Assembly (NCBI GenBank): GCA_020427345.1
Contig: JAGQOO010000001.1
Coordinates: 8,922-72,921, forward strand
DNA length: 64,000 bases
Source of the DNA: Phycisphaerales bacterium
Lineage (GTDB): Bacteria > Planctomycetota > Phycisphaerae > UBA1845 > Fen-1342
Reading direction: 5' to 3'
Shown: positions 16,245-37,754 of the stretch, in pieces
How the letters are laid out: every line of letters begins with the position of its first letter
Position numbering within the stretch: position 1 is the stretch's first letter
Position numbers and translations under genes: made by a program
Notes under the pieces: generated by a model
Databases searched by the model: none
Seen by the model: the letters and a program-made list of their open reading frames with translations, nothing else
Told to the model about the DNA's origin: nothing

Positions 16245-19200
16245 CTACTTGTTCTGGGGCGTCAGCGTGTTTGACCCGGTCAGCTTGACTTTGCGCTGAT
16301 CCTGCAGGGTCAGCGGAATCTCGTACGCGTTTCCGTTCAACTGCGGGGCGCCCCCGCGCGAACCGAGCGGAATGTCATATCCGGCGTTGCGCGGCGCGGC
16401 GCCCGGGGTTGGCGAACGCGGCCCCGGGAATGGGCCGAGCGTGTCATCCGCCGTTGTAGGCGCGAGGCGCTCCGGACGAACGCGCAGGTTGCCCATCAGG
16501 CGACTGCTGAGCACGTCCGGCGGGAGAATGCCGCTTTCGTCGCGGGCGCGAACCGAGACATCGCGGAAATCATCCACCGTACGCACCACCCGCGGCGTGA
16601 GAACAAGCAGCAGCTCATTGCGCCGGGTTTCGTTCGTGCGATTGGACGCAAGGAGCCCGAGAATCGGCACATCGCCGAGGATCGGAATCTTCTGCTCGCG
16701 GCGGTTTTCGCGCGATGTGATCAAACCGCCGAGCACAACCGTCTCGGCGTCGCGCACGCTGACGGTCGTTTCGGCTTCGCGACGGAAGAAGACCGGGGCC
16801 GTGACGCCCTGGCCGACGTCGACAGTCGAATCGGTCAGGTCGGACACTTCCTGATGGACTTCCATGCGAACGAAATTGTCAGGATTGATCTGCGGCGTCA
16901 CTTCGAGGCGAATACCGATTCGCTCGCGGGCAACCTGCGTCGTCACCTGGCCGGCGACGCTCGTGCTGGTCCCGGTCACATAGGGGACGTCGTTGCTGAT
17001 GTCGATGATCGCCTGCTGGCCGTCCATGGCGACGATCTGCGGACGGCTGAGCACGTTGAGACTGCCTTCGTTCTGTAACGTGCGGAGCAGGAAGTTGAAG
17101 TCGGCGCCGGTGATGGTGAAGCTGAAACCGCCGAGGCCGGTTCCGGCGGCGCCAAGGTCTGTGCCGCCGACGAAGTCGAACGTGGTCGTGTCGGTCGGGC
17201 CGGCCTTGGTGAACTGCAAATCCTGGAACGCGAATTCGACACCGAGGTCAAGCGAGTTGTCGACCGTGACTTCGACAATGAGCACTTCGATCATCACCTG
17301 CGACGGTGGTTGATCGAGCTGGTTCAGCAGGTCGAGCACTTCCTCGCGCCGACGCGGGGAGAAGTCGACGATCAGGCGGTTGCTTTCTTCGGCCGAATAG
17401 ACGCCAATCTGGCGCTCGATTTTGGCGGTCGCCGAAATCTGATTTTCAAGTTCGCCGAGGATCTGCTGCTGGCCCTCATTGTACTGAGTGATCTGCTCGC
17501 GTAACGAGGCCGGTGGCGAGTACCGAGGGTTGTAAACGATCTGCTGGCGCGGCTGGTCCTCGACGCTGTCGAGCTGAATGACGAGTTCCTCAAGCAAATC
17601 GAGGTAGCCCTCGGTGCCGGCGGCGACGATCGAATTGGTGCGCGGCTCCGTTGTAAACCGCAGCTCCTGTCGGCCCGCGGCAGCCCCGATTACGGCGATG
17701 TCTGACGTTCCGCCGGCGCCTTGGCCAGATTGCTGCTGCTGCTCAAACAGGTCGTTTAGCATCGTGACCATTTGTTCCGCGTCACTGTTCCGCAGGCGGA
17801 TGACGCGAATCGGCACCGCGTCCGGCGGTTGATCGACGGCCGCGATCAGCGAGTCGAGCAACTCGACGCTTTCCGGCGGCATGATGACGACGATCTCGTT
17901 GGTGCGCGTATTGTCGATCACGGTGATGTTCTGGCGCACGCCGCGCGGCAGGCCGTTGATTTTCAAGTCCGGCCGTGACGCGAGAATCAGGTTGACCGCC
18001 GAACCGGCTTCGTCGGTTCGCGAGCCCGCGCCGCCGGCTCCACCGCCGTCGCCTGTGACTGTGCCGGCCTCGAGACCGAGGATGTTGCGAAGCAACTCGC
18101 CCGCGAGTTCGACATCGGTTTGCGTGAGTTTGTAGATTTTCACGACGGCGTTGTTGCGCGCTTCGGCGCTATCGAGCTGATCGAGCAGCGACTCAATGTC
18201 GTGCACGATTATCGGTGGGCCGACGACGACAATCGCGTTTGTCGACGGATCGTGGAATACGGTTACATCGCTGCCGGCCCCTTGCTGGCCCGACACCTGA
18301 TAGATTTCCTGGGCCCGCTGCGCGAGTTGCTCGGCGTCACCACGCCGAACGGGAATCACCCGAGTCACGCGTCCGCCGGGGTCGAGCGGTTTGTCGAGGA
18401 TTTCGATCCAGCGTTCGAGTTGGGTCATATCCTCGCGCGCCGCGGAGAGCAGCAGGCTGTTGGAGTACGGATCGGCGGCGATGTAGATCGGCGTGCCTTC
18501 CGATTGCTGGCCCTGCGCGCCGCCGCCGCTGCGCGAGCGATCGACCATTTCCTGCAACAGGCGGGCGATATTCGAGGCGGAGCCGAGCAGCACGGGACGC
18601 AGACGCACTTCGGTCGTCGGGACGGCGTCGCGGTCGAGGTTGTCGATGTACATCTTGGCTTCGTTGAGATAGTCGCGCGTGCCGACGAGCAGCAACGAGT
18701 TTGTGCGGTTGTCCGCAAGCACGTGCAGAATGTTCTTCTGCCCGTCGGGGGACACGTCTCGCTCCGATTCGCGGCGGCGGTCGAACATTTCCTGCAGCAG
18801 CGAAGCGAGTTTGACCGCGTCCGCCTTCTGCATGCCGAGCATTTCCGTCGCGACGATCTGCGACGCGTCGGCGTCATCGAGCGATGTTGCGAGGGTGCGG
18901 ACCATCTCCAGCATTTCCGGCGCGGCTACTACGATCAGCGAGTTTGAACGATCGTCGGCGCGTAGGATCGCGCCGTCACGAGCGCGATTCGCCTCGACGC
19001 CGATTGCCTGCATGCGCTGATCGATCACTTCGGTCAGTTGTTCGGCGATCTGCGACGCCTGCGTTTGGCGCAAGTGGATGACTTCGGGCTGGAGACGAAA
19101 CTCCGTCGATGGGCGATCAAGTTCCTGAATCACGCCCGCCGCGAGCAAGACGGCGTCGGTCTGGCCGATGACGAAGACGGTGTTGGTTCGCGCCTCGTGT

Positions 19201-22200
19201 TGTACGACGACATTGTACGGCAAGCCGCGCGGCGCGAGGCCCGGCGGCTGAGGCGGCATGACGCCGCGATCGAAACTCTGCTGCGTGGATTCGGAAGGCG
19301 GCATCAGCGCCTTCTTGCCGTTGTCGAACATCGCCTGCACGAGCGTGGCGACGGTTTCCGCCTGCGCGTATTCGAGACGGTACGATTTGATTTCGATGTC
19401 GTGGGCTTCGGGCAGCGTGTCGAACACGCGGACGATCTCTTGCAACGCGTTGTTGTTCTCTTCCGACGAGAAGACCATCAGCGAGTTGGAGCTCGCGACC
19501 GGAAGAATCCGGATCGGCTTATCCAGATTCAGCGGCGGGAGCTCCGTGCCATCGCCCAGTGTCAGCAGTAGTTGTCGCAGCAGGCGCCCCTGCGCGTTGT
19601 CGCGGGCCAGGTCCGATTCGATCATCTGATTCAGGACCTCGGCGAGGTCCTCGGCGCGGTTGTTCTTCAACGGCAGGATGAGAATGCGACCGGTCGAAAA
19701 CGCGGCGACGGACTTGTCCTGCTCGATATCGACATCGATGCCCTTGAGCAGTTCTTCGACCTGATCAAGATGGGCGTCGGTGCCCACGATGATGACCTTG
19801 TTGGAGCGCGCATCCGCCGTCACGCTCGGCTGCTCGGCGGCGGGAATACCCTGATTCGTGTACAGGCGCTGCAGGATCGGCTCCAGCAGCGCGACGGCTT
19901 CGGCGGCACGGAGATTCTGAACGGCATAAACGCGAGTCGTGAATCCGATCTGCGAATCAACATCGAGGCGCTGAATCAGCGCTTCGATCCACGGCATGTT
20001 GCGCTCGGAGGCGGTCACGATCAGCGAATTGCTGCGCGACTCGGCGATGACGCTGAAGCGGTCGCCGCGATCGGGCGTATCGGTGCGCGTGCCGATGAAC
20101 TCGGTGATGGCGGTTGTGATGATCGGCTCGATCGCGGCCGCAGTCGTATTCTTGAGCTTGAACACGCGGATGTCGCCGGCCGATGAGGCCTGCTCCATCA
20201 GCGCGAGCATCTGCTTGACGAAGTCGATGTCGCGCCGATCGCCGGTGATCATCACCTGGCGACTGTCGATCGGCGTGACAACAACATCACCACGCAGCTG
20301 GCCGCTGATGCTCTGAAGCGGCGTGCCATCACTCGGCGCGGGCTCGGCGCCGGGCGCTTGGGTATCGTCCGCGACGAGTTCGGCGTCGTTCGGCTCATCG
20401 CCGGCGTCCTGCAACCACATCGTGGCGATGAAGCGACCGAACCCGCCGGCGCCGGCTTCAACACGCGGCTTTCCCGGCTCGGTCCGATTGCGCCGACCAC
20501 TGTTGGTCCGCGGCGTCGAGCGCGGGACGTTAACCGGGCGACTCGGCGTCGGGCTTGGCGGAGACGCGCTTGGGCTGGCGCTGGGCGTCGGCGCGGACAT
20601 TGACGAGCGCGGCGTGCGATTCCGCGTGCCGGAGCGCGGACGCACGGACGAGCCACTGGACGAGCGACCGGAGGTCGGGCGAATACTCGATGAGCTTCCG
20701 CCGCCGCCACCACCGCGACGGTTGTTCTGCATCTCGTTGATGCGATCCGCCGCCTCGGTCGAGCTGATGTTGGTCAGCTGGATGATGACGGTCTGGTAGT
20801 CGTCGGGGCGAATGTCGGCGAGCTGGCGAACAATGCCCTCAGCCATGCCGTACATCGCCGGATCGCCGTACACAAGCAGCGTGTTGGTCGTGTCGTCGGC
20901 TTCGATTGTGATGGTGCGGGCCTGGCGACCGGTGGCGTCGGCGCGAGCGCGCTCGCCGTCATTCAGCACGCGCTGCAACCGCCCCGCCAGCGAAACAGCA
21001 TCCTGCCCGAGCGGAATCTGGATGACACGCACGCCGTGCTGCTGCAGGTCCGGACTGTCAAACTCTTCGATCAGGCGCTGCGCTTTGCCGACCTGCGCCT
21101 GCGTGCCCCAGACAATGATCTTGTGACCATCGTCGTTCGGCGTGACAACCGCGGCTGTCAATCCCGTCGCCTCATCGAGCAAGTACGGCGTAATGCTCGA
21201 AACGACTTCGGACGGCAGCGCGTTCTTGACATCAAAGCTGGCGATTTCGCGACGGTTGGACGATTCCAGCACCTGAATGATCAGGTTGTCGACCTTGTCG
21301 ATGTCTTCCGATACGCCGAAGACCAGCACCGAATTCGTCGCGGGTTCGGCCACGGCCTGGACATCGAGGGTTTCACCGGAACCGCCGGAGCCGCCCGACA
21401 TCGCGGCCATCATCGGATTGCGCCCGCCGCCGCGTTGCATGGCGGCTTCGGCGCTGGCGCCGGAGGCGAAGTTGTTGATGGCGGCGGCGACGACGTCGGC
21501 GTTGGCTTCCTGGAGCGAAAAGACGCGGAAGGTCTTGCGCTGCGCCTCCGGGGTTTCTACATCGGCGACCGCGAGCAGCGTCTTGACGAAGGCGAACGTC
21601 TGCTCTGATCCCAGAACCGTGACGCTGTTCGTGCGCGTATCGGGCACGGCCGTAAAAGCGTCGATGTCAAGCCCGCCGCCGCCTTCGAGCTGTCTGGACA
21701 GCATCATGTACTTGGCGAAGGCCTGTTCGACCTGCGTCACAACTTCCTCGGCCCGCGCGTGTTTGAGCGGGAAGTTGCGAATCTCAAGGCCCATGCTGTT
21801 CTGATCGAGCACGAGCGCCATTTCACTCATCTGTTTGTAAATGTGATCCGGCGCGCGGACAAAGATCTTCTTGGCCGCCTGATCGCCGATCACCACGATG
21901 CGCCCCGTCATCGACGCGACCTGGCGCGAGCCGCCGCCGCGACGCTGACCGCCTTCGAGTTCCGAACCGCCGATGCCACCGAACATCTGCGCTAGTTTGT
22001 CGGCGAGCTTTTCGGGATTGGCGATATTGACCGGGATTTCGCGCACGTCGAGCTTGGCGAGTTCGTCGAGCCGCTTGGCCGTCGCAAGGATTTCACGCCG
22101 CGCGTCGCCCGGCCCCCACACGATGATGGAATTGGACACGGGGTCCGCGGATACGCGGATGTCGGTGAGCGGCACATCCGACCCGCGCCGACCGCCGCCC

Positions 22201-25200
22201 CGCGAACCGCCGCCGTAAATCTCCTGCGCGGTGCCGGCGATCGCCGTCGCGTCGCCGTACTGGCAGACATACGTTTCGGCCTCGGACATCGCGCCTTCGA
22301 TATCGACGGCGCGAATCTGCTCTTCGACGCGTGGCACGTCGCGCTCGCGACAGGAATAGACAATCGCGTTAATGCGGGCGTCGCCGGAGACCCAGACCGG
22401 GCCGATATCGCTCGGGCTGCCACCACGGCCGCGCGCGTCGCCACCGCCGCTGACATTCGCGAACAACTCGCTGAGCAATGGCAGGACGTCGCTGACCTTG
22501 GCGTTCTGCAGTTCAAAGCGGTTGACGACAATGACGCCGCCGGGCGTATCTTCGAGTTCCTTGATGGTGGCCTGAATCACGGCCATGACTTCGACCGGCG
22601 CGGACACGAGCAACGTGTTGGACTGGGCGTTGGGGACGATTTCCGTCGCTTCGATCTTGGCGGGTTCGAGGCCTTCGATCTTGACGGCGCGCGACTCCTC
22701 AACGTCCATGATCTGCGACCCGCCGCCGCGACTGCGGAGGTTATCCAGAGCGCGGGTGCTGCGACCGCCCTGGCGGCCGCCGAGACCGAGCGCGCCGTTT
22801 AGCGCGTCCGCGGCTTCTTCGGCGCCGATGTTCTCCAGCCGGAACAGGCGAATGATGACCTCGCCCGGCGGGATGTCGAGTTCGCGGAGAAGCGTGCGCA
22901 CTTCCGGCAGCAGCGACGCCTGGCACTTAACGATCAAGTAGTTGTTGCCCGGATCGGTGGCGATGCGCAGGCCACTTCCGCCGCCCGCCCCCGCCGCGGC
23001 TTGCTGCTGTTGCTGCATCACCTGTTGGAGCATCTGCTGCTGTTGCTGCTGCTGGCGGTCGTCTTCGCCGCCCTTGTCGCCGCCCTGCTGATTGCGCTGA
23101 TTGGGCAGTTGCGGGCGAACCTGCTGACGCGCGGCAGTGCGCTGGTTGAACATCATGTCGAGGATGCGCGAGGCGGTGTTCACATCGCCGTAGCGGAATT
23201 CGAAGATGCGAATGACTTCGCCTTCGTCGAGGTCTTCTTCAATGAGGTCGATCCTGTCTTCGAAATCGCGAACGGCCATCTCCGGGCCTTTGATCACAAA
23301 TGTGCCGTCGGGCATAGCGACAACCTGAACGCGTCCGTCCGGGCTGGTCGGCGGGCTTGAGCCCTGCACCACGTCACCCGCATTTCGCCCTTCGTCGGCG
23401 GCCTGAAGGTCAGCGCCTGCCGCCGCCGGCCCACTGTGCCATGCCGCAAATCGGGCCAGATCATTGTCTCTTGAAGCTGCGGAAGAAGTGGGTCCGGCAT
23501 TCGTTTTCTCTTCCTTCCGCGCGCCGGTTGGCTCAGTCCGAGCCCGCTTACGACGGATACGTTCAGGCACTTCGCCTTCGTCCCACAACGGTTCCACGAT
23601 CGACGGTCCGGTCTCGCTCACACCGCCAGTGGGCAGGATGACGTCAATGTCCGGGCTGTTCTGCGCGGAGAGCACGTCAAGAAATTGCCGCTGGCTCGCC
23701 TTCGGCTTGAACGTCTTGATGACGTAGCTCATTGGCGTAGCCGCTTCGATCTTGCGAACCATCTTCTCGATACGTTCAAACTCGTGGGGGTAACAGATCA
23801 CCTTGACCTGGTTGCCGGTCCACGTCGAATCGATCACAGGCCCGCCTTCGCTCTCCGGCGGGAACATGTCGGACACGTCATAAGCGATATCGAACGCGTC
23901 GCCGTTGACGATCTTGATGAAATACAACTCGCGATCGCCCAAACCGGTCGCGTCTTCGTCAGGAGCCTTGTCGAGTAGTTGCAGGTAGGTCTCGACCTGA
24001 CGCATCATCTGCTTGTTCGCGGACACAAGCAGTTCGTTCTTCCACTCGTCCGCCGTAATGGAGACCGAATCCGCGTCAGCGCCTTTGAACGGCGCCATCT
24101 GCGACAGCAACTCCTCCATCTGCGGAGCGCGCTTGTACTTCAACGCGAAAATCTGGAACTCGGGGACGGCGTTACTGCGCGTGTCGAGTTCCTTGATGAG
24201 TTCGTAGAGTTTTTGAATCTCTTCCTTGCGGCCTGAGAGAATGATCGAGTTACTTCCCGTGTCCGCCACAACGCGAACGGATGAATCACCGCTGCTCCCG
24301 AAGCCGGGGAAGAACCCGCGGCCGCCGCGACCGCGACCGCCGAAAAAGCCGCTGAACCCGCCCGAGCCGGTCGTCTGGCGCACGGTGTCGGCGATTTCCT
24401 CGGCTGAGCCGTTTTCGATCTCGATGATCTGCGTGATTTCGCCTTCGGACTGCGTGTCCATCATCTTGACGAGATCGTCGGCGAGGTCCTGCAACTGCGG
24501 CGGCGCGAAGACGACGACGCGGTTGTTGTCGGAATCCGGCACGACGGACGTCGGAATGCCCTGTGCGCCGCCGCGGCGGCCGGCGGGCGACTCCATCGCT
24601 TTCGCGCGCAACATCTGATCGAGGCTTTGCGCGACGATCTCAGCCTTGGCGAACTTCAACTCATAACTGCGGGCCTCGGCCGTATCCGGCTTCTTCATCT
24701 CGATCTTGGTGATCATCGAATCGATGAAGGGCAGATTCCGCGCGGGGGCCATGACGATCAGCGTATTCGTTGTCGGCTCGGCGAAGGCGCCGGGCTGCAA
24801 CTGGCCACGCCGCTGCGTCTGCCCCATCGAGCGCAGGAAGAACTGCACCTGCATCGCGACCTGCGTCGCGTCGAGCACTTCCAGATCGTACGTCTTGATC
24901 TGAATGTTCTGCTCGTCCGGCTTGTCGATCATGTCGACGAGCGCCCGAATCTGCTCCAGCGAAGCCTCCGGCGCGCGGACGATCAGCGTGCCGTTCGCCG
25001 GGCGCACCTGCACGAGCTGATTTTCGCGCGTCTGACCGCGACGCGAAGCCCCGAAGATCTCATTGATCGTCTGCGAGACTTCCCACGGATCAGCGTTGAC
25101 CAGCGGGATCGACACCCATGGCGTGTCATCCTGCGCGGCGCTGGCGTCGAGTTCGGCGACAAGGGCCTTGACCTCGTCCATCTTGGCCGCGGGCGCCTGC

Positions 25201-28200
25201 ACAACCAGCGTCGAACCGCCGCCGACTGGATAAAACGCGTATTCGGTATTGGCCTTTTTGCCGGTTTGCCGCGAGTTGTATTTCCCGTTCAGGACGTTGA
25301 TGAGCTCGTATGGGTTCATGATGTTGTGCAGCTCAACGGTATCGAGCAGGATCGACGTGTTGGCGGCGCGCTCGTCGAGCGCCTTCGCCCACGATTCGAT
25401 ATCGTTGAAATCTTCATCCGCGCCGGAAACGATGATCGAGTTGGTCATCGGCTCGGCGCTGATCTGCAACGTGCGTTTCGTGCGGATTTGCTCGCGGAGG
25501 ACTTGCTGCAGCACATTGAAGACGTGCTGCGCATCGGCATTGGCCAGCTCGATCGTTCGAATCTGATTCGTCTTGGTCGCGGTCTGATCGAGTTCCTGAA
25601 TCAACTCCTCGGCCATCGACATCGCGTAGCGCGGCGCGTTGACGAGCACGTTGTTCAACCGTGTATCGACGCTGACGTTGATCAGACTCGCCGCGGCACG
25701 ACCGCGCGTATACCCCACGCGGACGTTCAGCTGGTTACGCAACTGATCGGCGACGTATGCGGCTTCAGCGTTATCAATGTGGAAGTTGCGGCGGATCGGC
25801 TCAACGTCTTCGGACTTGGCGACAAACTCGTTGACGAGGCGCTCGATTTCGGGGAACTCGTCGCGCGGCGCGCTGACAATCAGCGTGCCGGTCGTCGCGT
25901 CAGACGACACAACGCGGCGGAGCTTATCCGGACGAGCCGGGGCATTGCCGAGCACGCGCTCCAGATTGCGGGCCAGGTCGCTGACGTCCATACCCGCGAC
26001 CGCAAAGGTCTTCACCTCGACCGGCGTCTCGGGCGCGCCCTTTGACTCTACGTCGTACTGGGACAGCAGCGAGAGCCCCATCTGCACCGCGACCTGCGGG
26101 GCGTTGAGGATCACGCGATTGGTGCGGTCGTCGCCGGTAACGCGAATCAGCCGGGCAACGGTTGATCCGAATTGACGCTCAACGGCGGGCGTCAGCTGAT
26201 CGCGCAGCCAGTTCGCCGCGTCATTCGCGTTCGCGTGCTCGAGTGTTCGGAACTCGATCTGCTGTTCGATTTCCTCGCCGATCGCCTGATACTCGGTCAA
26301 GAGTCGCTCCGCCTCGGCGAGCGTCGATCGGCTGGCGGTGACGAGGATGGTCTCGGTGGTCGGGTCGGCCTCAAAGCGGGCGACGACATTCGGCTGCTGC
26401 CGCGACTGCTCGCGGAAGGCGTTATTCAGGCGGCTCGCGATCGAACTAACGCTCTGCCCCTGCCCGGGCAGGCGGATGGTCTTGATGACAATGTCCTGAC
26501 CGGCGGGATCGTCGAGTTTGGCGATCAGCGCTTCGATGGCGGGGAACTTGTCCACCGGCGCCTCGACGACCAATTGCGGACCGGAGTCGAACGCCTGGAC
26601 GCGCGAGTCGGACGCGCCGCGATTGCGACCACGACCGCCGCCGCCGCCACCGTGCAGGCTCATGATGGCGCTGGCGACTTCGCGCGGGTTGCTGAACTTG
26701 GGCGTGTAGTAGCGCGTTTCGGGCTGCTGCTCGGCGACGCGCTGTTCGTAGTCGGTCACGAACGCGCGCACTTCGTCAACCGTGCTTGTATTCGCGCGGA
26801 TGATCAGCGAGTTTGTCGCGGGCTCGGCCTCGATGCTCGGACCGGAGCCGCCGCCCTGACCGCGCCTTCGGCCGCGCGCGTCTTCGGGCAGCAACATCTG
26901 GGCGTACTGTGCGACTTCGGCGGCGTCCGCATAGGCCAGGGGAATAATGACCAGCGGAGCGCCGTCAGGCTCGACATCGAGTTGCTGTACCAGCGATATC
27001 ATTTCGTCGATGGCGGGCTGAACGGCGCGGACCATGATGTCGCCGTTCTCGGTCACTGTGATTTCGGAATTCGAACGACCGAGCGTCGGGTGCTGATATT
27101 GGCGGAAAAACCGTTCGAGCGTATCCGCGATCGACTGGGCGTTGCCCTTTTCGATCTGGAACGTGTGCGTCACGGGCATGTCGCTGACGGCTTTGGCGTC
27201 GAGGTCACGGATCACCGGCTCGACATCCTCGGTCCATTCATCATCCGTGCACACCACGATGAGCAAACCGGCTTCGTCCAGCGGAATGACCTGCGACGTC
27301 GGCGCAGCTTTGGAAGGCGCTCGGCGTCCACCGCGACCGCGCGGCGCCGCGCTGCCCGCATTTCCCGACAGAATCGGGTTGATCACCTGAGCCACACGGC
27401 TAGGCGTGACGTTGACCAGTTCGACGACATGCCGGTTCTGTCGCTGATCTTCGGGGATTTCGATATCGAGATCGCGGATGACCTCGGCGACGCGGGTCAT
27501 GTCCTCGCGATCGGCGACAACATGCAGCGCGTTCTGACGCGTATCGGCGACAATCGAGGGGCCGCGCGCTCCGCCGCCGCGCGCCCGTTGCGGCGCGGCG
27601 CCCTGGACAATCTGCTGTACCAGCGGCTCGATCTCGGTCGCGTCAGCGTACTTGAGTTCGAACGTCTGAACGTTGCTGGCGACTGGCTGGTCGATGCCTT
27701 CGAGCAACTCGTCGACGCGCTTGTGGCCGTCGTCCGTCGCATAAACGACGATCGCGTTACGGCGGGCGTCGGGGACGATGCGCACCGTCTTCTTGGCCTT
27801 TTCGAAAACGTCTTCGACGATAATGTCTTCGGGGTTGGCCTGATTCTGCTGCGCCGGCTGGTTCGGCTGACGCCTTACGGTGCGACCGCGCTGCGGAACC
27901 GGGCGTCCGGGCGTGCGAGACTCGCCCTGCTCCTGCTCGAAAATCTGGTTCAGCAGGTTGGCCACTTCTTCGGCGTCGGCGTATTGGATGACCTTGACCT
28001 TGGTCGTGAACTCGCCGATCTCGGGTTTCACGTCCACCTGCTCGATGAACGATTCAACTTCTTTCAATTCTTCAGGCGTGCCCTTGGCGATAATGCTGTT
28101 TGTTCGCGTGTCGGCGATGATCTTGAGCGTGTCAAAGCTCTCCTGGTCCATCTGCTGCGCGGCGGGTTGCGGCTGGCTGCGCTGCGTCGTGGCGCGCGTG

Positions 28201-29903
28201 CGGAATCGCGACACGGGCGAATTCAGTTCGAAGAAATCGCGCAGCATGCCTTCGATCACCTGCGCGTTGGTCTGGATCTTGAAAATCTTCGTGTTACGCG
28301 GGTCGTAGAACTCGTCCTTCAGCACGTCCAGCAACTGCATGAACCGCTCGACATCCATCGCGAACCCGTTGATGCGAATCTTGTTCGCCTCGCCGACGAC
28401 GACGGGCAGCGCGCGATCCGGCATGCTCGGGGCGATCAGGTCGCGCACATCTTCGGCGCGGCGGTCTTTGATCTGAATCAGCACAGAAACGAACTGCAAC
28501 GGGCGCAGGTTCGCCGCCCGGAATGCCTCGATGCCGTCATAAATCTGCGTCGTCTCGAGGAATTTCGGAATATCCCCTTCGCGAAGCACGTACGTAAACC
28601 GCTCATCGGAGTACAGGAAATACCCCTGCATCAGCAGCAGGTAGTTCAACTCCTCAACAGCCTCTTCCTGCGTGAAGCGCTCCGTCGTTGTGTAGGTCAG
28701 GTCGCCGCCGATGATCGCATCCTCGGCGCCGAGCGCCGGTTTGCCGATACGCTCGATGAAGTACGCGATCACGTCCTCAAACGGCATTCCGTCAAACGCA
28801 AACCACTCGGTGCGACCATCCTCAGTGGGCGGCCGCGTGATCTGCACGTCCGGGGATTCGATCAACCGCGCAGAGTCCGTCAGACCGCCTTCGCCGATCT
28901 CCGGCTGTGCTTCACCGGCCGGATGAGTGGCGCGGTTGGGGCGGCGCGGCGATGTTCGCGTCGGCCGCTCCGGCGTCGGCTTGACCGGCTGCTTGTCACG
29001 TCCGCGATCGCGCGCGGTGCGCGGGGTTTGGCGTTCCGGCTTCTGGATCGGATCAATCCCGGGGTCGATCTCCGGCTGCCCGGTCGGCTGCTCCTCAACT
29101 ACGGGCGGTTCGGCGGGCGGGTCCTGCCCCGGCTCGACTACCGGCTGATCCTCGACCGGCTCGCCAGTCCCCTGCGACGCGTTGGGTTCGCCGGCGGGTG
29201 GCGGTGGCTCGTCAACCGGCTCCGTGGTCGGCGGCTCAATGTCAAGCCCCTCATCCGGAACGGCGGGCGAATCCCCGGTGTCCGGCACGGGTTGGGGGGC
29301 GACCGTCGGGGACTGTCGCCGACCTCGAGGCGCCGTCCGGGGGATCGTCGGATCCTCGGGATCGCCGGGGCGGATCTGCTGCTCGCCCTCAGCCTGGGCG
29401 GAGCCACTGTCGGCCAGATCACGCCGTCGAGCCTCTTCGCGGGCCTCGTTGGCGGCCCGAACTTTGTTCGCTGCTTCCGGGCGCACCTTCGACTTTTCGG
29501 CCGCGGCCGTGCCGGGCCGCGGGCGCGGTTTGGTGACGTCCGCCGTATTGATCGGCTTGACCGGGTTGGCCCGACCTTCCTTAGCTGGATCGCCATCGTC
29601 ATCAGACAGGCGCGTGGGGTTCTGCTTGTTTGTCTTGCGCGGCGGACGCTTCGATGGCGCCTTGGCGGGCTCCACGGGCTTGGCGGGGTCGGTCTTCGCC
29701 TCGTCGGCGGGCTTGGCCTCGGGCTTGGACTTGTCGTCGGCAGGTTTGTCTTCGACCGGTTTTTCCGGCTTGACGGGCTCAGCGCCCTTGGGCGGGTCGG
29801 CGGGCGGCTTGTCCTGACTGACCACGATTCCGGCCGCCAGCCATGCGCCGAGGATCAGGACGATCGGACCCACTACCGTTCTACGCTGTTGAGAAACCGA
29901 CAT
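16245..29903 (-). CDS. gspD: Giant secretin (GspD/PilQ family), 4,552 aa, with about 40 tandem Secretin_N-like modules
   Basis: Uninterrupted 13.66-kb ORF. The C-terminal secretin domain (nt ~16584-17297) contains NVLSRPQIVAMDGQQAIIDISNDVPYV, IPILGDVPILGLLASN and ELLLVLTPRVV. An N0-like domain (WFAFDGMPFEDVIAYFIERIGK) is present. Modules ending ...ADxRTNSLIVxA...LIxxLD recur about 41 times by eye. N-terminal TM helix followed by about 370 aa of P/K/E-rich disorder. Confidence 0.9.
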   Translation of the reverse strand: MSVSQQRRTVVGPIVLILGAWLAAGIVVSQDKPPADPPKGAEPVKPEKPVEDKPADDKSKPEAKPADEAKTDPAKPVEPAKAPSKRPPRKTNKQNPTRLSDDDGDPAKEGRANPVKPINTADVTKPRPRPGTAAAEKSKVRPEAANKVRAANEAREEARRRDLADSGSAQAEGEQQIRPGDPEDPTIPRTAPRGRRQSPTVAPQPVPDTGDSPAVPDEGLDIEPPTTEPVDEPPPPAGEPNASQGTGEPVEDQPVVEPGQDPPAEPPVVEEQPTGQPEIDPGIDPIQKPERQTPRTARDRGRDKQPVKPTPERPTRTSPRRPNRATHPAGEAQPEIGEGGLTDSARLIESPDVQITRPPTEDGRTEWFAFDGMPFEDVIAYFIERIGKPALGAEDAIIGGDLTYTTTERFTQEEAVEELNYLLLMQGYFLYSDERFTYVLREGDIPKFLETTQIYDGIEAFRAANLRPLQFVSVLIQIKDRRAEDVRDLIAPSMPDRALPVVVGEANKIRINGFAMDVERFMQLLDVLKDEFYDPRNTKIFKIQTNAQVIEGMLRDFFELNSPVSRFRTRATTQRSQPQPAAQQMDQESFDTLKIIADTRTNSIIAKGTPEELKEVESFIEQVDVKPEIGEFTTKVKVIQYADAEEVANLLNQIFEQEQGESRTPGRPVPQRGRTVRRQPNQPAQQNQANPEDIIVEDVFEKAKKTVRIVPDARRNAIVVYATDDGHKRVDELLEGIDQPVASNVQTFELKYADATEIEPLVQQIVQGAAPQRARGGGARGPSIVADTRQNALHVVADREDMTRVAEVIRDLDIEIPEDQRQNRHVVELVNVTPSRVAQVINPILSGNAGSAAPRGRGGRRAPSKAAPTSQVIPLDEAGLLIVVCTDDEWTEDVEPVIRDLDAKAVSDMPVTHTFQIEKGNAQSIADTLERFFRQYQHPTLGRSNSEITVTENGDIMVRAVQPAIDEMISLVQQLDVEPDGAPLVIIPLAYADAAEVAQYAQMLLPEDARGRRRGQGGGSGPSIEAEPATNSLIIRANTSTVDEVRAFVTDYEQRVAEQQPETRYYTPKFSNPREVASAIMSLHGGGGGGRGRNRGASDSRVQAFDSGPQLVVEAPVDKFPAIEALIAKLDDPAGQDIVIKTIRLPGQGQSVSSIASRLNNAFREQSRQQPNVVARFEADPTTETILVTASRSTLAEAERLLTEYQAIGEEIEQQIEFRTLEHANANDAANWLRDQLTPAVERQFGSTVARLIRVTGDDRTNRVILNAPQVAVQMGLSLLSQYDVESKGAPETPVEVKTFAVAGMDVSDLARNLERVLGNAPARPDKLRRVVSSDATTGTLIVSAPRDEFPEIERLVNEFVAKSEDVEPIRRNFHIDNAEAAYVADQLRNQLNVRVGYTRGRAAASLINVSVDTRLNNVLVNAPRYAMSMAEELIQELDQTATKTNQIRTIELANADAQHVFNVLQQVLREQIRTKRTLQISAEPMTNSIIVSGADEDFNDIESWAKALDERAANTSILLDTVELHNIMNPYELINVLNGKYNSRQTGKKANTEYAFYPVGGGSTLVVQAPAAKMDEVKALVAELDASAAQDDTPWVSIPLVNADPWEVSQTINEIFGASRRGQTRENQLVQVRPANGTLIVRAPEASLEQIRALVDMIDKPDEQNIQIKTYDLEVLDATQVAMQVQFFLRSMGQTQRRGQLQPGAFAEPTTNTLIVMAPARNLPFIDSMITKIEMKKPDTAEARSYELKFAKAEIVAQSLDQMLRAKAMESPAGRRGGAQGIPTSVVPDSDNNRVVVFAPPQLQDLADDLVKMMDTQSEGEITQIIEIENGSAEEIADTVRQTTGSGGFSGFFGGRGRGGRGFFPGFGSSGDSSVRVVADTGSNSIILSGRKEEIQKLYELIKELDTRSNAVPEFQIFALKYKRAPQMEELLSQMAPFKGADADSVSITADEWKNELLVSANKQMMRQVETYLQLLDKAPDEDATGLGDRELYFIKIVNGDAFDIAYDVSDMFPPESEGGPVIDSTWTGNQVKVICYPHEFERIEKMVRKIEAATPMSYVIKTFKPKASQRQFLDVLSAQNSPDIDVILPTGGVSETGPSIVEPLWDEGEVPERIRRKRARTEPTGARKEEKTNAGPTSSAASRDNDLARFAAWHSGPAAAGADLQAADEGRNAGDVVQGSSPPTSPDGRVQVVAMPDGTFVIKGPEMAVRDFEDRIDLIEEDLDEGEVIRIFEFRYGDVNTASRILDMMFNQRTAARQQVRPQLPNQRNQQGGDKGGEDDRQQQQQQQMLQQVMQQQQQAAAGAGGGSGLRIATDPGNNYLIVKCQASLLPEVRTLLRELDIPPGEVIIRLFRLENIGAEEAADALNGALGLGGRQGGRSTRALDNLRSRGGGSQIMDVEESRAVKIEGLEPAKIEATEIVPNAQSNTLLVSAPVEVMAVIQATIKELEDTPGGVIVVNRFELQNAKVSDVLPLLSELFANVSGGGDARGRGGSPSDIGPVWVSGDARINAIVYSCRERDVPRVEEQIRAVDIEGAMSEAETYVCQYGDATAIAGTAQEIYGGGSRGGGRRGSDVPLTDIRVSADPVSNSIIVWGPGDARREILATAKRLDELAKLDVREIPVNIANPEKLADKLAQMFGGIGGSELEGGQRRGGGSRQVASMTGRIVVIGDQAAKKIFVRAPDHIYKQMSEMALVLDQNSMGLEIRNFPLKHARAEEVVTQVEQAFAKYMMLSRQLEGGGGLDIDAFTAVPDTRTNSVTVLGSEQTFAFVKTLLAVADVETPEAQRKTFRVFSLQEANADVVAAAINNFASGASAEAAMQRGGGRNPMMAAMSGGSGGSGETLDVQAVAEPATNSVLVFGVSEDIDKVDNLIIQVLESSNRREIASFDVKNALPSEVVSSITPYLLDEATGLTAAVVTPNDDGHKIIVWGTQAQVGKAQRLIEEFDSPDLQQHGVRVIQIPLGQDAVSLAGRLQRVLNDGERARADATGRQARTITIEADDTTNTLLVYGDPAMYGMAEGIVRQLADIRPDDYQTVIIQLTNISSTEAADRINEMQNNRRGGGGGGSSSSIRPTSGRSSSGSSVRPRSGTRNRTPRSSMSAPTPSASPSASPPSPTPSRPVNVPRSTPRTNSGRRNRTEPGKPRVEAGAGGFGRFIATMWLQDAGDEPNDAELVADDTQAPGAEPAPSDGTPLQSISGQLRGDVVVTPIDSRQVMITGDRRDIDFVKQMLALMEQASSAGDIRVFKLKNTTAAAIEPIITTAITEFIGTRTDTPDRGDRFSVIAESRSNSLIVTASERNMPWIEALIQRLDVDSQIGFTTRVYAVQNLRAAEAVALLEPILQRLYTNQGIPAAEQPSVTADARSNKVIIVGTDAHLDQVEELLKGIDVDIEQDKSVAAFSTGRILILPLKNNRAEDLAEVLNQMIESDLARDNAQGRLLRQLLLTLGDGTELPPLNLDKPIRILPVASSNSLMVFSSEENNNALQEIVRVFDTLPEAHDIEIKSYRLEYAQAETVATLVQAMFDNGKKALMPPSESTQQSFDRGVMPPQPPGLAPRGLPYNVVVQHEARTNTVFVIGQTDAVLLAAGVIQELDRPSTEFRLQPEVIHLRQTQASQIAEQLTEVIDQRMQAIGVEANRARDGAILRADDRSNSLIVVAAPEMLEMVRTLATSLDDADASQIVATEMLGMQKADAVKLASLLQEMFDRRRESERDVSPDGQKNILHVLADNRTNSLLLVGTRDYLNEAKMYIDNLDRDAVPTTEVRLRPVLLGSASNIARLLQEMVDRSRSGGGAQGQQSEGTPIYIAADPYSNSLLLSAAREDMTQLERWIEILDKPLDPGGRVTRVIPVRRGDAEQLAQRAQEIYQVSGQQGAGSDVTVFHDPSTNAIVVVGPPIIVHDIESLLDQLDSAEARNNAVVKIYKLTQTDVELAGELLRNILGLEAGTVTGDGGGAGGAGSRTDEAGSAVNLILASRPDLKINGLPRGVRQNITVIDNTRTNEIVVIMPPESVELLDSLIAAVDQPPDAVPIRVIRLRNSDAEQMVTMLNDLFEQQQQSGQGAGGTSDIAVIGAAAGRQELRFTTEPRTNSIVAAGTEGYLDLLEELVIQLDSVEDQPRQQIVYNPRYSPPASLREQITQYNEGQQQILGELENQISATAKIERQIGVYSAEESNRLIVDFSPRRREEVLDLLNQLDQPPSQVMIEVLIVEVTVDNSLDLGVEFAFQDLQFTKAGPTDTTTFDFVGGTDLGAAGTGLGGFSFTITGADFNFLLRTLQNEGSLNVLSRPQIVAMDGQQAIIDISNDVPYVTGTSTSVAGQVTTQVARERIGIRLEVTPQINPDNFVRMEVHQEVSDLTDSTVDVGQGVTAPVFFRREAETTVSVRDAETVVLGGLITSRENRREQKIPILGDVPILGLLASNRTNETRRNELLLVLTPRVVRTVDDFRDVSVRARDESGILPPDVLSSRLMGNLRVRPERLAPTTADDTLGPFPGPRSPTPGAAPRNAGYDIPLGSRGGAPQLNGNAYEIPLTLQDQRKVKLTGSNTLTPQNK

Positions 29904-30078
29904 GCGTTTTCCTCTTGCCGCCGACGGTTGGACCGCCGGATGATGATGCGAAAGTCAATGTCGATGGCAGCCGCCGGTCGCGTCGGCGGTCGCAGGCTTA
30001 TACCGATGTCGCCGCGCTCAGATTGCGTCCGCGCCGAAGTCGCGCGCTCAGTCGCGACAAGCGCATCGGGCACGGGGC

Positions 30079-31293
30079 TTATGTATCGGGGCAGTTCGGC
30101 TCCGGCTGCGACGCCTCGCCGGAAAGCTCCCCTGTCGCGTCGTCCGGACGCTCTTCGGGCGAATCATCCGAATGGGCCCTGGACGGCTGGTTCCCGAACC
30201 GCGCCGCTCGGTATTCCGAGATCGCGGCAAGTTGCCGCGGATCGTCGGCGCTGAGTTCCTCGCGATCCGCCCACGTGGCGCCCAGCGGGTAGAAATAATA
30301 CCGCCTCGGCGCCGGCTCCGACACTTGCACGATCAGCCCGCTCGGGTGAACGAAAACAAGGCGGCCGTCGTCAAACTCCGCGCTTTCCGCGTACTTCTGC
30401 GGCGGCAGATCCAGCCGTCCGTCATCAATCACATACGCCGTGTAATGACCATGCATCGAACTGACGCCCGCGAGACGCTTCTGGTCGGCGTCGCGGCGAC
30501 GGTTGACGGGCGGCGGAGGAGGAGGCGGAGTTGTGTCCTGAGTGACTTCCGGTTCTTTGTGCGTGGGCGGTGGTGGCGGCGGCGGAGGCGGTGGCACATA
30601 CGACGCGAAGATGTTCTGCTTCCGCAGCGTCATGAACTGCTGCTCTGAAATCAGCGGCTCCTCGCGGCGGGCATGCAAGTTGTCGATCGGCTCGCGCGTG
30701 ATGCCCTTTACGTCATCCGGCAGGATGAGCGCTTCGATCTTGATGGTGACGTCCAGATCCGGGCCGGCCGGCGATCGCTCCGGCTGGTTCTTCCGCTTGT
30801 TCTTGGAGGCCGGCTGCACTTTCGAAGCCAGGTCGAGCGATGTGATCTTGACCAGGTACTGCCGGCTATATAGCGCGTCGATAAACTCAATCGTCTTGTC
30901 GTAGTTCGCGGTAAACCCGATATCAATCGGCAGCTCGACGAACCCCTTGCGATAGTCGGCCGGGCGCTTTTCCCCTTTTTGCGAAACCCTCGCCCCGCGA
31001 ATCCCCATGTCTTCCAGCAACTGGTTGATGTCCCGCCGAAACTCGTTCATGGCCTGGCCGGGATCATCGCCGATCGTCTGATTGACCATCGCCGCCCAAG
31101 CCTTCTTGAGTTGTTTTTCACCACCTGTGATTTGCTCGAGTCTCGCCTTGTCAGAGGTGAGGTCAGTGATTTCCTGATCCATGTTGCGCAGCGGCGTGAC
31201 GACGCCGCGCTGCACGACCTGCCACACACCAAGCACGATCACCATGCCGCCGGCGACAATCATCAGGAGTTTTTCTCGCGGAATCGCGTTCAT
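30079..31293 (-). CDS. PilO(GspM)-like protein fused through poly-Pro linkers to a PilP(GspC-HR)-like domain
   Basis: N-terminal TM helix (LLMIVAGGMVIVLGVWQVV) plus coiled coil. PilO-like core FVELPIDIGFTANYDKTIEFIDALYSRQYLVKITSLDL. Pro runs PPPPPPPPPP and PPPPPPP. C-terminal beta-rich LAGVSSMHGHYTAYVIDDGRLDL...GRLVFVHPSGLIVQV. Confidence 0.6.
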   Translation of the reverse strand: MNAIPREKLLMIVAGGMVIVLGVWQVVQRGVVTPLRNMDQEITDLTSDKARLEQITGGEKQLKKAWAAMVNQTIGDDPGQAMNEFRRDINQLLEDMGIRGARVSQKGEKRPADYRKGFVELPIDIGFTANYDKTIEFIDALYSRQYLVKITSLDLASKVQPASKNKRKNQPERSPAGPDLDVTIKIEALILPDDVKGITREPIDNLHARREEPLISEQQFMTLRKQNIFASYVPPPPPPPPPPTHKEPEVTQDTTPPPPPPPVNRRRDADQKRLAGVSSMHGHYTAYVIDDGRLDLPPQKYAESAEFDDGRLVFVHPSGLIVQVSEPAPRRYYFYPLGATWADREELSADDPRQLAAISEYRAARFGNQPSRAHSDDSPEERPDDATGELSGEASQPEPNCPDT

Positions 31294-32946: not shown

Positions 32947-34545
32947 TTACTGCGGCATTTCCAGTTGAAGCGTGTCGTCATCCAGCGGCCACGCCAGCCC
33001 CAACTGCGTCAACTCGCGATGATATCGGATTTGCGGCAACGGGCCGATCATCTCGAAGATCCACTCGAACCGGCGCGAGATCTTCGTATGATCCGCGTAT
33101 CCGACGCACTCCACATGAAACTGATACGCCTTTGTAGTGGCCAGGGGCGCAAACTGCTGGAAGGTCGGCACGCTGACGACGCCGGCCGTGACCGGCCAGG
33201 CGACGGTGCGAAGGGCCTGCGGGTCGTTTTCGCGAAGGTCATTGCGCGTGGCAATCATCGCGGCGACGATCTCGTCATTCACGCCGGGCAATAAACGCAG
33301 AATCCGAGCCGGAGCCACGTTGATATTGATCCGACCCGGAATCAGCCCCTGCTGCTGCGCCGGCGGAACAACAGTAAACCGGTCCATCAGAAACGGCAGC
33401 TCTTCGAGCGTGATTGGGCTGCCGGCGAGCGCCCCGCCGGGCGCAGGCGTGTTGCTTTCTGACTCGGTCGGCGGCGCGCCGGCGCCGGCATACAAGTCCG
33501 CCGGGCTTCGGAGCGACTGCACCGTCTGCTGGTCAAGCGCGCTGATGAACGCCAATGACGCTTGGCTCAGCGGGACTTCATTCGGCACGCGGTTCGGATC
33601 CTCGTCCTTGCGCTTCTGCCAATCCGCCATGCCGGTTTGAATCGCCGCCGCGCCGCCGTTGATATTGATCCGGCGTTGATTGTCCGTCGCCACCTCGGGC
33701 TCGCCCGACCACACTGTGAGAAATGGCGCGATGCCGGGATTCAGAATCCCGTCGGCGTTGTCATAGAACGGAAAACTCGCGTCGCCATCGTCCTCGTTCT
33801 GGTCGAGGATGCCATTGCGGTTGACGTCTTCGCCATACAGGATCGCGGCGGTCACGTTCTTGACGAGCAGCAGTTCCTCAACGGTGTCAAACGGCCCGTT
33901 CTTGACGGCGTACGGCGGCTCAAGCGTGCTGTAGTATTCCGTTTCGGCGCCGTTTGCCCGCGCCTCATCGTCGTCGTCGCGCCAGTCGAGGATGGCGTCG
34001 ATAATCTGCTCGACGTTGTCGATCTGGAGGTCCGTGAGGATTGGCGTGATCAACGCCGCGATCTGCTCGTCGCTGGCGACATTAATGTTCAACTTGGCGG
34101 ATTCCGGCGTTGGACCGAAACGAATAAAACGCTGATCGGTCGACGTCGCCATGTCGTAGGCCGCCGCGACGATCGAATAGCGCCAGGCCCGGACGATCGG
34201 ATCGCCCGACTGAAACATATCGAGGCGCGACCCGAGTTCGCGGACCGGGTCGGATTGGCGATCGTAGCTTTCCGCCCAGACCAGGCCGTGATGGAACAAA
34301 TCCGGGCGATGCCACCAGACGGACGGATCGTCGCGCTTCCAGCGCAACAGCGCGATCAGTTCCTGATAGCCGGACTCCGCCGCCAGCTTCGCCTGCTGCA
34401 TATCGTTGGCCGCATAGCCGCCCTGCATCTCGGCGCGAACGAAGAAGAGGAACCCGCCCAAGGTGACAATCAGCAACCCGATCACGACCAGCGTGACCGG
34501 CAAAATGAACGCCCGGCGGCGGCAATTCGCAAGTCGCGACATCAC
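32947..34545 (-). CDS. gspK: GspK-like minor pseudopilin
   Basis: N-terminus RRRAFILPVTLVVIGLLIV has the pseudopilin helix without Glu+5, as in GspK. Large size (532 aa). HhH-like INVASDEQIAALI and RININVAPARILRLLPGV. Confidence 0.8.
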   Translation of the reverse strand: MMSRLANCRRRAFILPVTLVVIGLLIVTLGGFLFFVRAEMQGGYAANDMQQAKLAAESGYQELIALLRWKRDDPSVWWHRPDLFHHGLVWAESYDRQSDPVRELGSRLDMFQSGDPIVRAWRYSIVAAAYDMATSTDQRFIRFGPTPESAKLNINVASDEQIAALITPILTDLQIDNVEQIIDAILDWRDDDDEARANGAETEYYSTLEPPYAVKNGPFDTVEELLLVKNVTAAILYGEDVNRNGILDQNEDDGDASFPFYDNADGILNPGIAPFLTVWSGEPEVATDNQRRININGGAAAIQTGMADWQKRKDEDPNRVPNEVPLSQASLAFISALDQQTVQSLRSPADLYAGAGAPPTESESNTPAPGGALAGSPITLEELPFLMDRFTVVPPAQQQGLIPGRININVAPARILRLLPGVNDEIVAAMIATRNDLRENDPQALRTVAWPVTAGVVSVPTFQQFAPLATTKAYQFHVECVGYADHTKISRRFEWIFEMIGPLPQIRYHRELTQLGLAWPLDDDTLQLEMPQ

Positions 34546-37241: not shown

Positions 37242-37258
37242 CTCAGGAGGAGCGTGAG

Positions 37259-37708
37259 TTACGCATCCTTCCAGTTATTGATGTCGTCGTCGGTTCCCGC
37301 CTGACCATCCGGACCGGGGCTGGACAGGTCAAAACTGTCCTCGTTGTACTGCCCCGGGCATTCGTACTCGTAATCGTGCCCCCATGCGTCCTTCAGGTCG
37401 GCGGCGTTCTTGATGTACGGGCCACGCCACTTCGCCTGGGCTTCCTCATCGTCCGGCTGCTCGACCAGCGCCATCAGGCCGTTTTCCGAGGACAGCGGAT
37501 AGTGCGTCATGTGCATGCGGTACAGGTCCAGCGCCCCGTTGAACCCGGTCTTCACAGCCGCCTTGGTCAAGTCCTGGCGCGCGCCCTTGTCCGCGCCGAA
37601 GAACTGCGGCACGACGATGGCGGCGAGAATGCCGATGATCACGATCACCATCAGCACTTCGAGCAGCGTGAACGCGCGACGTACGATTCGATTCCGCTTC
37701 TGATTCAT
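37259..37708 (-). CDS. gspG: Major pseudopilin GspG
   Basis: Start at the ATG at 37708 (MNQKRNRIVRRAFTLLEVLMVIVIIGILAAIVVPQF). C-terminal GspG hallmarks KWRGPYIK, KDAWGHDYEY and GPDGQAGTDDDINNW (Ca site). Confidence 0.9.
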   Translation of the reverse strand: MNQKRNRIVRRAFTLLEVLMVIVIIGILAAIVVPQFFGADKGARQDLTKAAVKTGFNGALDLYRMHMTHYPLSSENGLMALVEQPDDEEAQAKWRGPYIKNAADLKDAWGHDYEYECPGQYNEDSFDLSSPGPDGQAGTDDDINNWKDA

Positions 37709-37754
37709 TGTTGAGTGTCTCCAAAACGGTTGTTTCAGCAGGCCGTTCATATCC

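Follow-up and report, generated by a model that had tools for sequence, protein, structure and literature searches.

What is a gene for 4,552 amino acids (aa) doing at the end of a secretion operon, when its product closes with the gate and barrel domain of an outer-membrane secretin and consists for the rest almost entirely of repeated ring-building modules? The gene lies on the reverse strand of a 64,000-nucleotide stretch of contig JAGQOO010000001.1 from a Phycisphaerales bacterium (assembly GCA_020427345.1), and this whole stretch is referred to here as the window. The membership of the protein in the secretin family is clear, while its architecture, and probably its physical scale, lie far outside those of characterised secretins. 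We therefore consider in turn what the protein is made of, whether the gene is real and widespread, which machine it belongs to and what form its modules might take in the cell envelope.

An initial annotation, made from the DNA letters, had described one uninterrupted open reading frame (ORF) ending in a canonical secretin domain, and both parts of that description hold. The ORF scan recovers a single frame (Table 1) encoding a chain of roughly 0.5 MDa, and the Pfam Secretin model (PF00263) matches aa 4276-4441 with 161 bits (cut-off 27.5), covering model positions 2-169 of 169. In an alignment with 15 giant homologues, the domain contains 26 invariant columns. The NCBIfam model for GspD (TIGR02517) reaches 988 bits against a cut-off of 351, a score inflated by 20 repeated stretches, the best of which spans aa 3990-4450 and model positions 121-600. 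The models for PilQ (TIGR02515; 325 bits, cut-off 284) and SctC (TIGR02516; 309 bits, cut-off 238) also exceed their cut-offs, and such cross-matches are expected for any secretin. No Pfam match to an AMIN domain was found in the protein. Beyond the barrel, the first ~40 aa of the C-terminal tail are conserved within the clade and the remainder is rich in P and G; among the extracted giant homologues, the conserved block reads RTV(E/D)D(F/Y)R..S...RD...(I/L)P...L...LM..LRV.PE.L. The tail may be a pilotin-binding segment resembling an S-domain. On the opposite strand, ORFs overlap the gene, one of 1,360 aa at 26172-30254 (+) and several others of 200-470 aa; these are probably shadow ORFs of high-G+C DNA and not genes.

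The bulk of the protein is an array of N1-type modules. A profile hidden Markov model (HMM) iterated on the protein itself recognised 40 modules within aa 539-4200, and AlphaFold2 (AF2) added one more at aa 471-531, a beta-alpha-beta-beta-alpha unit with a predicted local distance difference test score (pLDDT) of ~90 that the profile had missed, which brings the number to 41 and agrees with the by-eye estimate of about 41 made earlier. The Pfam Secretin_N model (PF03958) scores 1000 bits over 32 separately significant stretches, so that domain counts by HMM find many modules rather than just a few, whichever of the two profiles is used. The module HMM was not significant at aa 467-538 or aa 2058-2231. 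Each module follows the layout beta-alpha-(G/R-rich loop)-beta-beta-alpha and measures 60-106 aa, except for a few with long inserts, and in a comparison with PDB sequences the modules match the N1-N3 domains of solved GspD structures. The linkers between modules are 4-15 aa long, save for one gap of 175 aa. Disordered inserts of 50-120 aa interrupt three of the modules, and AF2 gives low confidence for many loops, which are rich in G and R; the loops between alpha1 and beta2 contain 20% G and 12.5% R vs 7.4% and 7.5%, respectively, across the array. Any two modules share on average 19% identity and at most 35%, and no higher-order periodicity was detected among them, identity by lag being flat at 0.18-0.20. 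The one long gap, at aa 2057-2231, comprises two half-module-like blocks that are conserved across the orthologues of the clade and surround a variable segment of ~110 aa; by its sequence, it is a possible degenerate 42nd module with a long insert.

Ahead of the array, the initial annotation had placed a single N-terminal transmembrane helix, and this we would revise. The hydrophobic N-terminus aligns with the canonical Sec signal peptides of the orthologues, which have the motif ...A/Q(D/E) at the same place (slash, predicted cleavage site), and it is more probably a cleavable signal peptide than a membrane anchor; its long h-region (~19 aa) is compatible with an uncleaved anchor too. The mature protein would then probably begin with a proline-rich, charged segment of ~335 aa that is probably disordered (of its 335 residues, P accounts for 67 or 20%, A for 35, E for 34, D for 30, R for 30 and K for 23). 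For the N0-like domain that had been proposed to precede the modules, an AF2 model of aa 365-830 was built on an alignment with 18 orthologues; after the N0-like domain and the additional module, it contains modules 1-3, whose loops have low confidence. Foldseek returned as the best PDB matches of the model PulD (6hcg), the N0-N2 domains of XcpQ (4ec5/4e9j) and the N0-N2 domains of GspD (3ezj), all with probability 1.0. By sequence alone, there was no match to Pfam PF21305, and phmmer against the N0 domain of PDB 5wq7 gave 0.4 bits; the presence of an N0-like domain at the start of the structured part is thus supported by predicted fold, not by sequence alone. The corresponding region can be aligned in 100 giant homologues, and its start varies among orthologues from residue ~40 to ~470.

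Is the gene real? No direct DNA repeat longer than 35 nt was found inside it, nor a notable tandem array, and because the modules are only ~19% identical and long DNA repeats are absent, repeat mis-assembly is very unlikely. In a comparison with a relative from the genome scan described below (L004; 80% identical in DNA across the 6.7 kb that blastn aligned, 85% identical in protein), the nonsynonymous and synonymous substitution rates over 3,662 aligned codons are dN 0.10 and dS 0.86 (dN/dS ~0.12, Nei-Gojobori), showing that the gene is under strong purifying selection. Homologues in the protein collection include a near-identical one of 4,551 aa (P0121) and two more distant orthologues (P0123 and P0135; ~31-36% identity by phmmer with a C-terminal query, ~41% in the N-terminal region). 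When the window protein is compared with either distant orthologue, module i best matches module i (Spearman 0.99), the collinear score being typically about twice the next best, and this collinearity is interrupted once, after module 13, by an indel of two or four modules. Therefore, each module has its own conserved identity, and the array is old and constrained position by position. None of the three refuting outcomes named at the outset was observed: HMM searches find many modules, orthologues are uniformly giant, and the same architecture recurs in independently assembled sequences, among them contigs on the Mb scale and a 'chromosome: 1' record.

To place the gene within a family, the last 705 aa were searched exhaustively with HMMER against 1.84 billion cluster representatives, giving 42,488 matches, of which the best 150 were listed and 145 new ones analysed. 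Among these best 145 representatives, 102 are 3,000-5,532 aa long and carry the secretin domain at the very C-terminus; these 102 giants contain a median of 38 modules and a maximum of 56, and across all 145 the length of the protein follows the number of modules (r = 0.96). All 102 derive from metagenome-assembled genomes (MAGs) of Phycisphaerae/Planctomycetota, and the named entries, from Phycisphaerae, are called either 'hypothetical protein' or 'type II secretion system protein D'. The window gene is no singular case: its family counts at least 102 cluster representatives that reach 3,000 aa. When each GTDB species was represented by one genome and scanned with an alignment of secretin domains, at least 564 relatives were detected, and the best 80 of these, which were examined, are all MAGs; nearly all are labelled Phycisphaerae, Planctomycetota or Planctomycetia, the exceptions by label being one 'Verrucomicrobiales' and one 'Alphaproteobacteria' bin. 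Secretin domains of the nearest clade are 61-94% identical to that of the window protein. Of its loci, 28 extend a full 10 kb upstream; in 27 of these, an uninterrupted ORF runs off the locus after more than 3,660 aa, with 30-36 modules visible, and in the remaining one (L021) the gene is broken across three frames. The ORF likewise runs off the locus in a more distant group labelled Planctomycetia/Planctomycetaceae, and a 4.6-Mb contig carries a frameshifted copy of ~3,500 aa with ~27 modules.

No short secretin was found at loci with enough upstream sequence, the two apparent exceptions having runs of N upstream. In two records titled 'chromosome' (CP070685.1, our L001 and L044, and CP070691.1, L053), such runs leave the secretin domain in a short ORF; in CP070685.1, this ORF is annotated as 628 aa, 'partial', directly after rpoB. 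It was rejected as a short orthologue on the grounds that the runs of N mark an assembly gap or a masked stretch. Fragments of at most 755 aa returned by a protein search with the C-terminal 431 aa had also suggested short orthologues; these were rejected as well, for the near-identical 4,551-aa P0121 in the same collection was not returned by that search and the exhaustive search found the giants. In the public assemblies behind L002 and L021, the gene is broken into many frames. Because assemblies often truncate or frameshift these genes, surveys of called proteins undercount the family; the giants are easily overlooked, automatic annotation naming them plain 'GspD' and many MAGs truncating them.

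One module provides a view of how the protein may be put together. In module 29 (M29), the order is beta1-alpha1, an insert of ~120 aa, then beta2-beta3-alpha2; the insert has an R/G/S-rich start followed by a short hydrophobic segment, GFGRFIATMWLQDAG, and in the AF2 model both halves of the module are structured (pLDDT 74-88) while the insert falls below 50. In a sister clade (~50% identity, 20 loci), the secretin is encoded by two adjacent genes, and the break between them lies inside one module, corresponding exactly to M29 of the window protein. These loci fall within our range L045-L070 (e.g. L047, 5312-6410; L062, 6221-6932; L054; L070) and include the 'chromosome: 1' record and an 863-kb contig. 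The upstream ORF ends with a half-module (beta1-alpha1), an arginine-rich tail, which the R/G/S-rich start of the M29 insert resembles, and a stop codon. An intergenic gap of ~200-350 nt follows. The downstream ORF opens with a canonical signal peptide of its own (in L062, MNKLCIVLVLNVLALSAMA/QEP) and a P/A/K-rich linker and continues with the second half-module (beta2-beta3-alpha2), 12-13 more modules and a secretin domain. At the corresponding site, orthologues of the fused clade have a longer signal-peptide-like segment, ending in ...Q(N/S/A)A. We suggest, from this comparison of sequences, that the segment GFGRFIATMWLQDAG is a relic of a split-gene junction. The assembly probably has two parts, an inner one of N0 and ~29 modules and an outer one of ~11 modules and the barrel, and the junction module would be able to form from two chains.

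Which machine does the protein serve? The operon on the reverse strand has the order gspF-G-H-I-J-K-L/pilM-M-secretin, followed by a lipoprotein gene, the secretin gene being the last large gene. The same order, including a divergent upstream DEAD-box helicase, surrounds a 4,708-aa orthologue with ~31% identity on a 1.19-Mb metagenome contig (L003). The pseudopilin genes together span 32947-37768 (-), with matches to the N_methyl motif and to T2SSK_1st among them. The minor pseudopilins look unusually large against typical sizes, the GspI-like ORF having a long G-rich low-complexity region, and GspK has an HHH_3 match of 27.1 bits, just above the Pfam cut-off of 27. The PilM/GspL-like protein is laid out as a cytoplasmic actin-like domain, a transmembrane helix and a periplasmic part. 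A GspM protein usually has ~160 aa; the GspM-like protein here has an additional C-terminal domain and two stretches of proline (PPPPPPPPPPP and PPPPPPP), and these extra parts may act as a rigid spacer by which the platform reaches further into the periplasm. In the L003 orthologous locus, a 379-aa gene without a Pfam match occupies the GspM-like position.

A homologue of the lipoprotein lies directly downstream of the secretin gene on the same strand at 72 of 83 loci (80 from the genome scan plus L001-L003), and most of the orthologues inspected have the lipobox Cys. The lipoprotein has no match in Pfam or NCBIfam, and its position and lipobox make it a candidate pilotin or assembly partner, perhaps a new one. 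Scans of the operon gave no matches to PilN, PilO or PilP, and the window contains no retraction ATPase; among the window ORFs scanned, there were no genes of a type III secretion system (T3SS). The GspE/PilB-type ATPase listed in Table 1 is directly upstream of a gene for an 875-aa matrixin-like metalloprotease with HYDIN/ASH Ig-like domains (the pair spans 56129-60647 (-)), and this protease is a possible secreted substrate.

Table 1 Features of the giant secretin, its operon and associated genes in the window (slash, predicted cleavage site)
Feature	Position in window	Strand	Basis
Giant secretin gene, 4,552 aa	16245-29903	-	Single uninterrupted ORF, ATG start; Pfam and NCBIfam matches
Predicted signal peptide, aa 1-29, ...AAGIVVS/QDKPP	29817-29903	-	Alignment with orthologue N-termini
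Low-complexity P/A/E/D/R/K-rich segment, aa 30-364	28812-29816	-	Composition
N0-like domain, aa ~365-465	28509-28811	-	AF2 pLDDT 80-90; Foldseek
41 (possibly 42) N1-type modules, aa 467-4200	17304-28505	-	Own HMM, Pfam, AF2
Only long gap in array, aa 2057-2231	23211-23735	-	Conserved blocks in orthologues
Split module M29, aa 3039-3240	20184-20789	-	AF2; comparison with sister clade
Secretin (gate/barrel) domain, aa 4201-4441	16581-17303	-	PF00263; alignment with 15 giant homologues
C-terminal tail, aa 4442-4552	16248-16580	-	Block conservation in alignment
Conserved lipoprotein, 204 aa	15618-16232	-	Signal peptide and lipobox ...LVGAGC, followed by E
GspM-like protein, 404 aa	30079-31293	-	NCBIfam GspM 26 bits, below cut-off
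PilM/GspL-like assembly-platform protein, 539 aa	31312-32931	-	Pfam PilM_2 115.6 bits; TIGR01175 118 bits, below cut-off 133
GspK, 532 aa	32947-34545	-	Weak GspK match
Putative GspJ-like pseudopilin, 321 aa	34542-35507	-	Faint T2SSJ match in L003 orthologue
GspI-like pseudopilin, 380 aa	35504-36646	-	Weak match
GspH-like pseudopilin	36546-37241	-	Weak match
GspG major pseudopilin	37259-37768	-	TIGR01710 123 bits, above cut-off 88.85
GspF/PilC-type inner-membrane platform protein, first operon gene	37755-39110	-	Pfam T2SSF 182 bits; TIGR02120 340 bits, below equivalog cut-off 424
GspE/PilB-type secretion ATPase	58968-60647	-	Pfam T2SSE 448 bits and MshEN domain

Compared with secretins already characterised, the protein is closest in kind to GspD, PulD and XcpQ (5wq7, 5wq8, 6hcg, 3ezj, 4e9j). 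It shares with them the same C-terminal secretin domain, the N0 and N1-type folds, the genomic partners gspF, G, H, I, J, K, L and M, and an adjoining lipoprotein gene, as with the pilotins PulS and AspS, although the lipoprotein of the window matches no known pilotin family. GspD, however, has N0-N3 in ~650 aa whereas the window protein has N0 and ~41 modules in 4,552 aa, preceded by a low-complexity N-terminus of ~335 aa, and no GspC was detected and no gspE found in the operon. The giant secretin departs from the canonical layout of N0-N1-N2-N3-secretin(-S domain), and we conclude that it is a GspD variant, not an ordinary GspD. A precedent for extra N-domain rings is PilQ of Thermus thermophilus (757 aa), in which six stacked rings bridge a wide periplasm with a channel that measures ~35 nm in length and 15 nm in width (PMC5745081, PMC4463427); its rings are flexible, the distances between them are variable, and with six rings it was called 'one of the largest' (PMC5745081). 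In contrast to the ~42 rings predicted here, that protein is a type IV pilus (T4P) and DNA-uptake secretin in a pilMNOPQ context, made of one polypeptide type without a split-module junction. An identity as a T4P secretin PilQ was rejected for the window protein: it scores above the TIGR02515 cut-off, but there are no AMIN domains and no matches to PilN/O/P, and the major pilin is of the GspG type. The T3SS secretins InvG, EscC and MxiD (TIGR02516; 5tcq, 6q14, 7ah9) share the secretin domain and the ring-building motifs of N0, N1 and N3 and give significant Foldseek matches, but they have three N domains, and an identity as SctC was likewise rejected, as no injectisome genes were found among the window ORFs scanned.

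In one survey, secretins average 555 +/- 151 aa (PMC4827864), and no characterised secretin, Thermus PilQ included, comes near the protein described here. Like other giant genes of planctomycetes, the gene exceeds 5 kb and belongs to a phylum rich in giant genes with roles at the cell surface and in transport (Reva & Tummler 2008; reviewed in PMC12673574 and PMC11573180), and these giant-gene surveys (PMC12673574, PMC11573180) name cadherin, dockerin, DUF11, haemagglutinin and nonribosomal peptide synthetase/polyketide synthase types, whereas a search of them found no mention of a giant secretin. A search of openly readable full-text literature, including surveys of planctomycetes, giant genes and outer-membrane proteins, gave no description of a secretin longer than 3,000 aa, and the remark that no secretin of this architecture had been described stands for the literature accessible in this way.

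Our working hypothesis, which we consider fairly probable, is that the protein serves a type II secretion system (T2SS) or type IV filament-like machine as its outer-membrane secretin, with a periplasmic part extended to N0 and ~41 modules forming a stacked tube. The chain would be exported by Sec via a cleavable signal peptide, and its C-terminal domain would multimerise and insert in the outer membrane, perhaps helped by the downstream lipoprotein acting as a pilotin. Known secretins consist of 12-15 copies. The modules of all protomers would then form coaxial stacked rings in the manner of N1-N3 of GspD and N1-N5 of Thermus PilQ (the N1-type domains of InvG stack in rings as well), and the short, uniform linkers fit such tight stacking. 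With 42 rings of ~3-4 nm each, the tube would be ~120-180 nm long; this length and a link to the pits of planctomycete cells are extrapolated from homology. Such a tube would connect the outer-membrane pore to the inner-membrane platform (GspF, the GspL/M-like proteins and the GspE-type ATPase, whose role in the machine is hypothetical) across an enlarged and variable periplasm. Inside the tube, a pseudopilus of GspG with a GspH-K tip would grow and drive cargo or a fibre outward; at a rise of ~1 nm per subunit, a pseudopilus of that length would need only ~150 GspG subunits. The tube would be composed of an inner and an outer sub-assembly joined at one module, the two halves being those encoded separately in the sister clade.

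Several observations weigh against this hypothesis. A number of the component matches are below curated cut-offs, those of F, H, I, K and M among them, and only GspG exceeds its equivalog cut-off. A GspC-like match is absent from the operon, and the only GspE-type ATPase in the window sits 20 kb from the operon, none being encoded within it. The AF2 monomer models contain no confident inter-module geometry (predicted template modelling score, pTM, 0.34-0.38). Imaged secretins are not known to exceed about six rings, and the best 80 GTDB species include no cultured host. Planctomycetes have an enlarged periplasm and envelope-spanning 'press-stud' complexes (PMC5394234). In Planctopirus, these crateriform complexes keep the cytoplasmic membrane close to the wall (PMC5394234), a spacing that fits poorly with a straight tube of 150 nm, if the structures are related.

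The same observations on geometry bear on the form of the array. Instead of a rigid stack of rings, the modules might compose a flexible, extensible tether or concertina, or they might be layered side by side into a wide basket or cup, which we regard as unlikely, though deserving of attention. The low pTM of the models, the disordered inserts in three modules and the many low-confidence G/R-rich loops favour such a structure; the rings of Thermus PilQ are themselves flexible and variably spaced (PMC5745081), and crateriform complexes are described as short 'press-stud' links (PMC5394234). However, the linkers are very short and uniform, the orthologous identity of each module across species suggests fixed, position-specific contacts, and N1-type domains form rings whenever they have been imaged (PMC5745081, PMC4463427). 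If such an arrangement were nevertheless correct, the complex could follow a periplasm of changing width, or form a broad cup in place of a 150-nm tube.

A second alternative concerns the function of the machine rather than its shape, and we give it a similarly low probability: it may be the basal apparatus of a surface fibre, for instance of the pili-like fibres of planctomycete crateriform structures, or a device for uptake of DNA or polysaccharide, and not a protein-secreting T2SS, with the giant secretin as the core that spans the envelope and R/G-rich loops that bind polyanionic cargo. The operon is of the general type IV filament kind, with its PilM-type platform, enlarged minor pilins and marginal HHH_3 match in GspK; the PilQ model is also above its cut-off, R and G are over-represented in the loops, members of the family occur throughout Planctomycetota, and crateriform structures and their 12-nm fibres still lack assigned components (PMC5394234). 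Against this stand a major pilin above the GspG equivalog cut-off and the missing AMIN domains, PilN/O/P matches and retraction ATPase. Finally, that the long ORF is an artefact of repeat mis-assembly or chimerism, or a decaying, unexpressed gene, is extremely improbable and effectively refuted, for although the source organism is apparently uncultured and some public assemblies truncate or frameshift the gene (runs of N in L001/L044, frameshifts in L002 and L021), there are no long DNA repeats to misassemble among modules so dissimilar, the dN/dS ratio is low, and collinear uninterrupted ORFs occur in dozens of assemblies made independently from different species, several of the ORFs lying on contigs of 0.3-1.2 Mb.

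A bolder proposal, which we put forward as speculation and consider improbable, concerns the envelope-spanning complexes peculiar to Planctomycetota. Giant secretins may be the long-sought core of the planctomycete crateriform 'press-stud' structures and fibres, or of an equivalent trans-periplasmic organelle: a multi-megadalton tube or basket of ~600 ring-building domains (~15 chains x 41 modules), with two sub-assemblies docking via the split module and a lumen or surface lined by R/G-rich disordered loops that handle polyanionic cargo.

Elsewhere in the window, an aldehyde dehydrogenase gene adjoins one for a EutN/CcmL pentamer protein at 60763-63399 (-), and the pair is possibly part of a bacterial microcompartment locus that continues past the window. 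In a 1,166-aa protein (43825-47325 (-)), PKD, PA14, DUF11 and Ig domains accompany a glucose/sorbosone dehydrogenase beta-propeller; the protein looks like a surface or secreted one related to carbohydrates. At 50001-52000, where a DUF4238 protein (50337-51251) is encoded among unannotated ORFs, the G+C fraction drops to 0.56 vs ~0.63-0.65 elsewhere, and the region may be a small island of acquired DNA. Scans of the window for tRNA genes and Rfam families gave no matches.

Secretins belong to the most thoroughly studied machines of the bacterial envelope, and their periplasmic part has so far been regarded as a short vestibule with three to six rings. If the rings of the giant secretins stack, the 30-56 rings per chain would make the longest protein conduit known in a bacterial envelope and would show how secretion and pilus machines cope with the greatly enlarged periplasm of Planctomycetota. 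The naturally split module of the sister clade lends itself to testing whether domain complementation can serve for docking, and for envelope-spanning structures that lack assigned components, a candidate gene, a conserved operon and a lipoprotein partner are now on hand.

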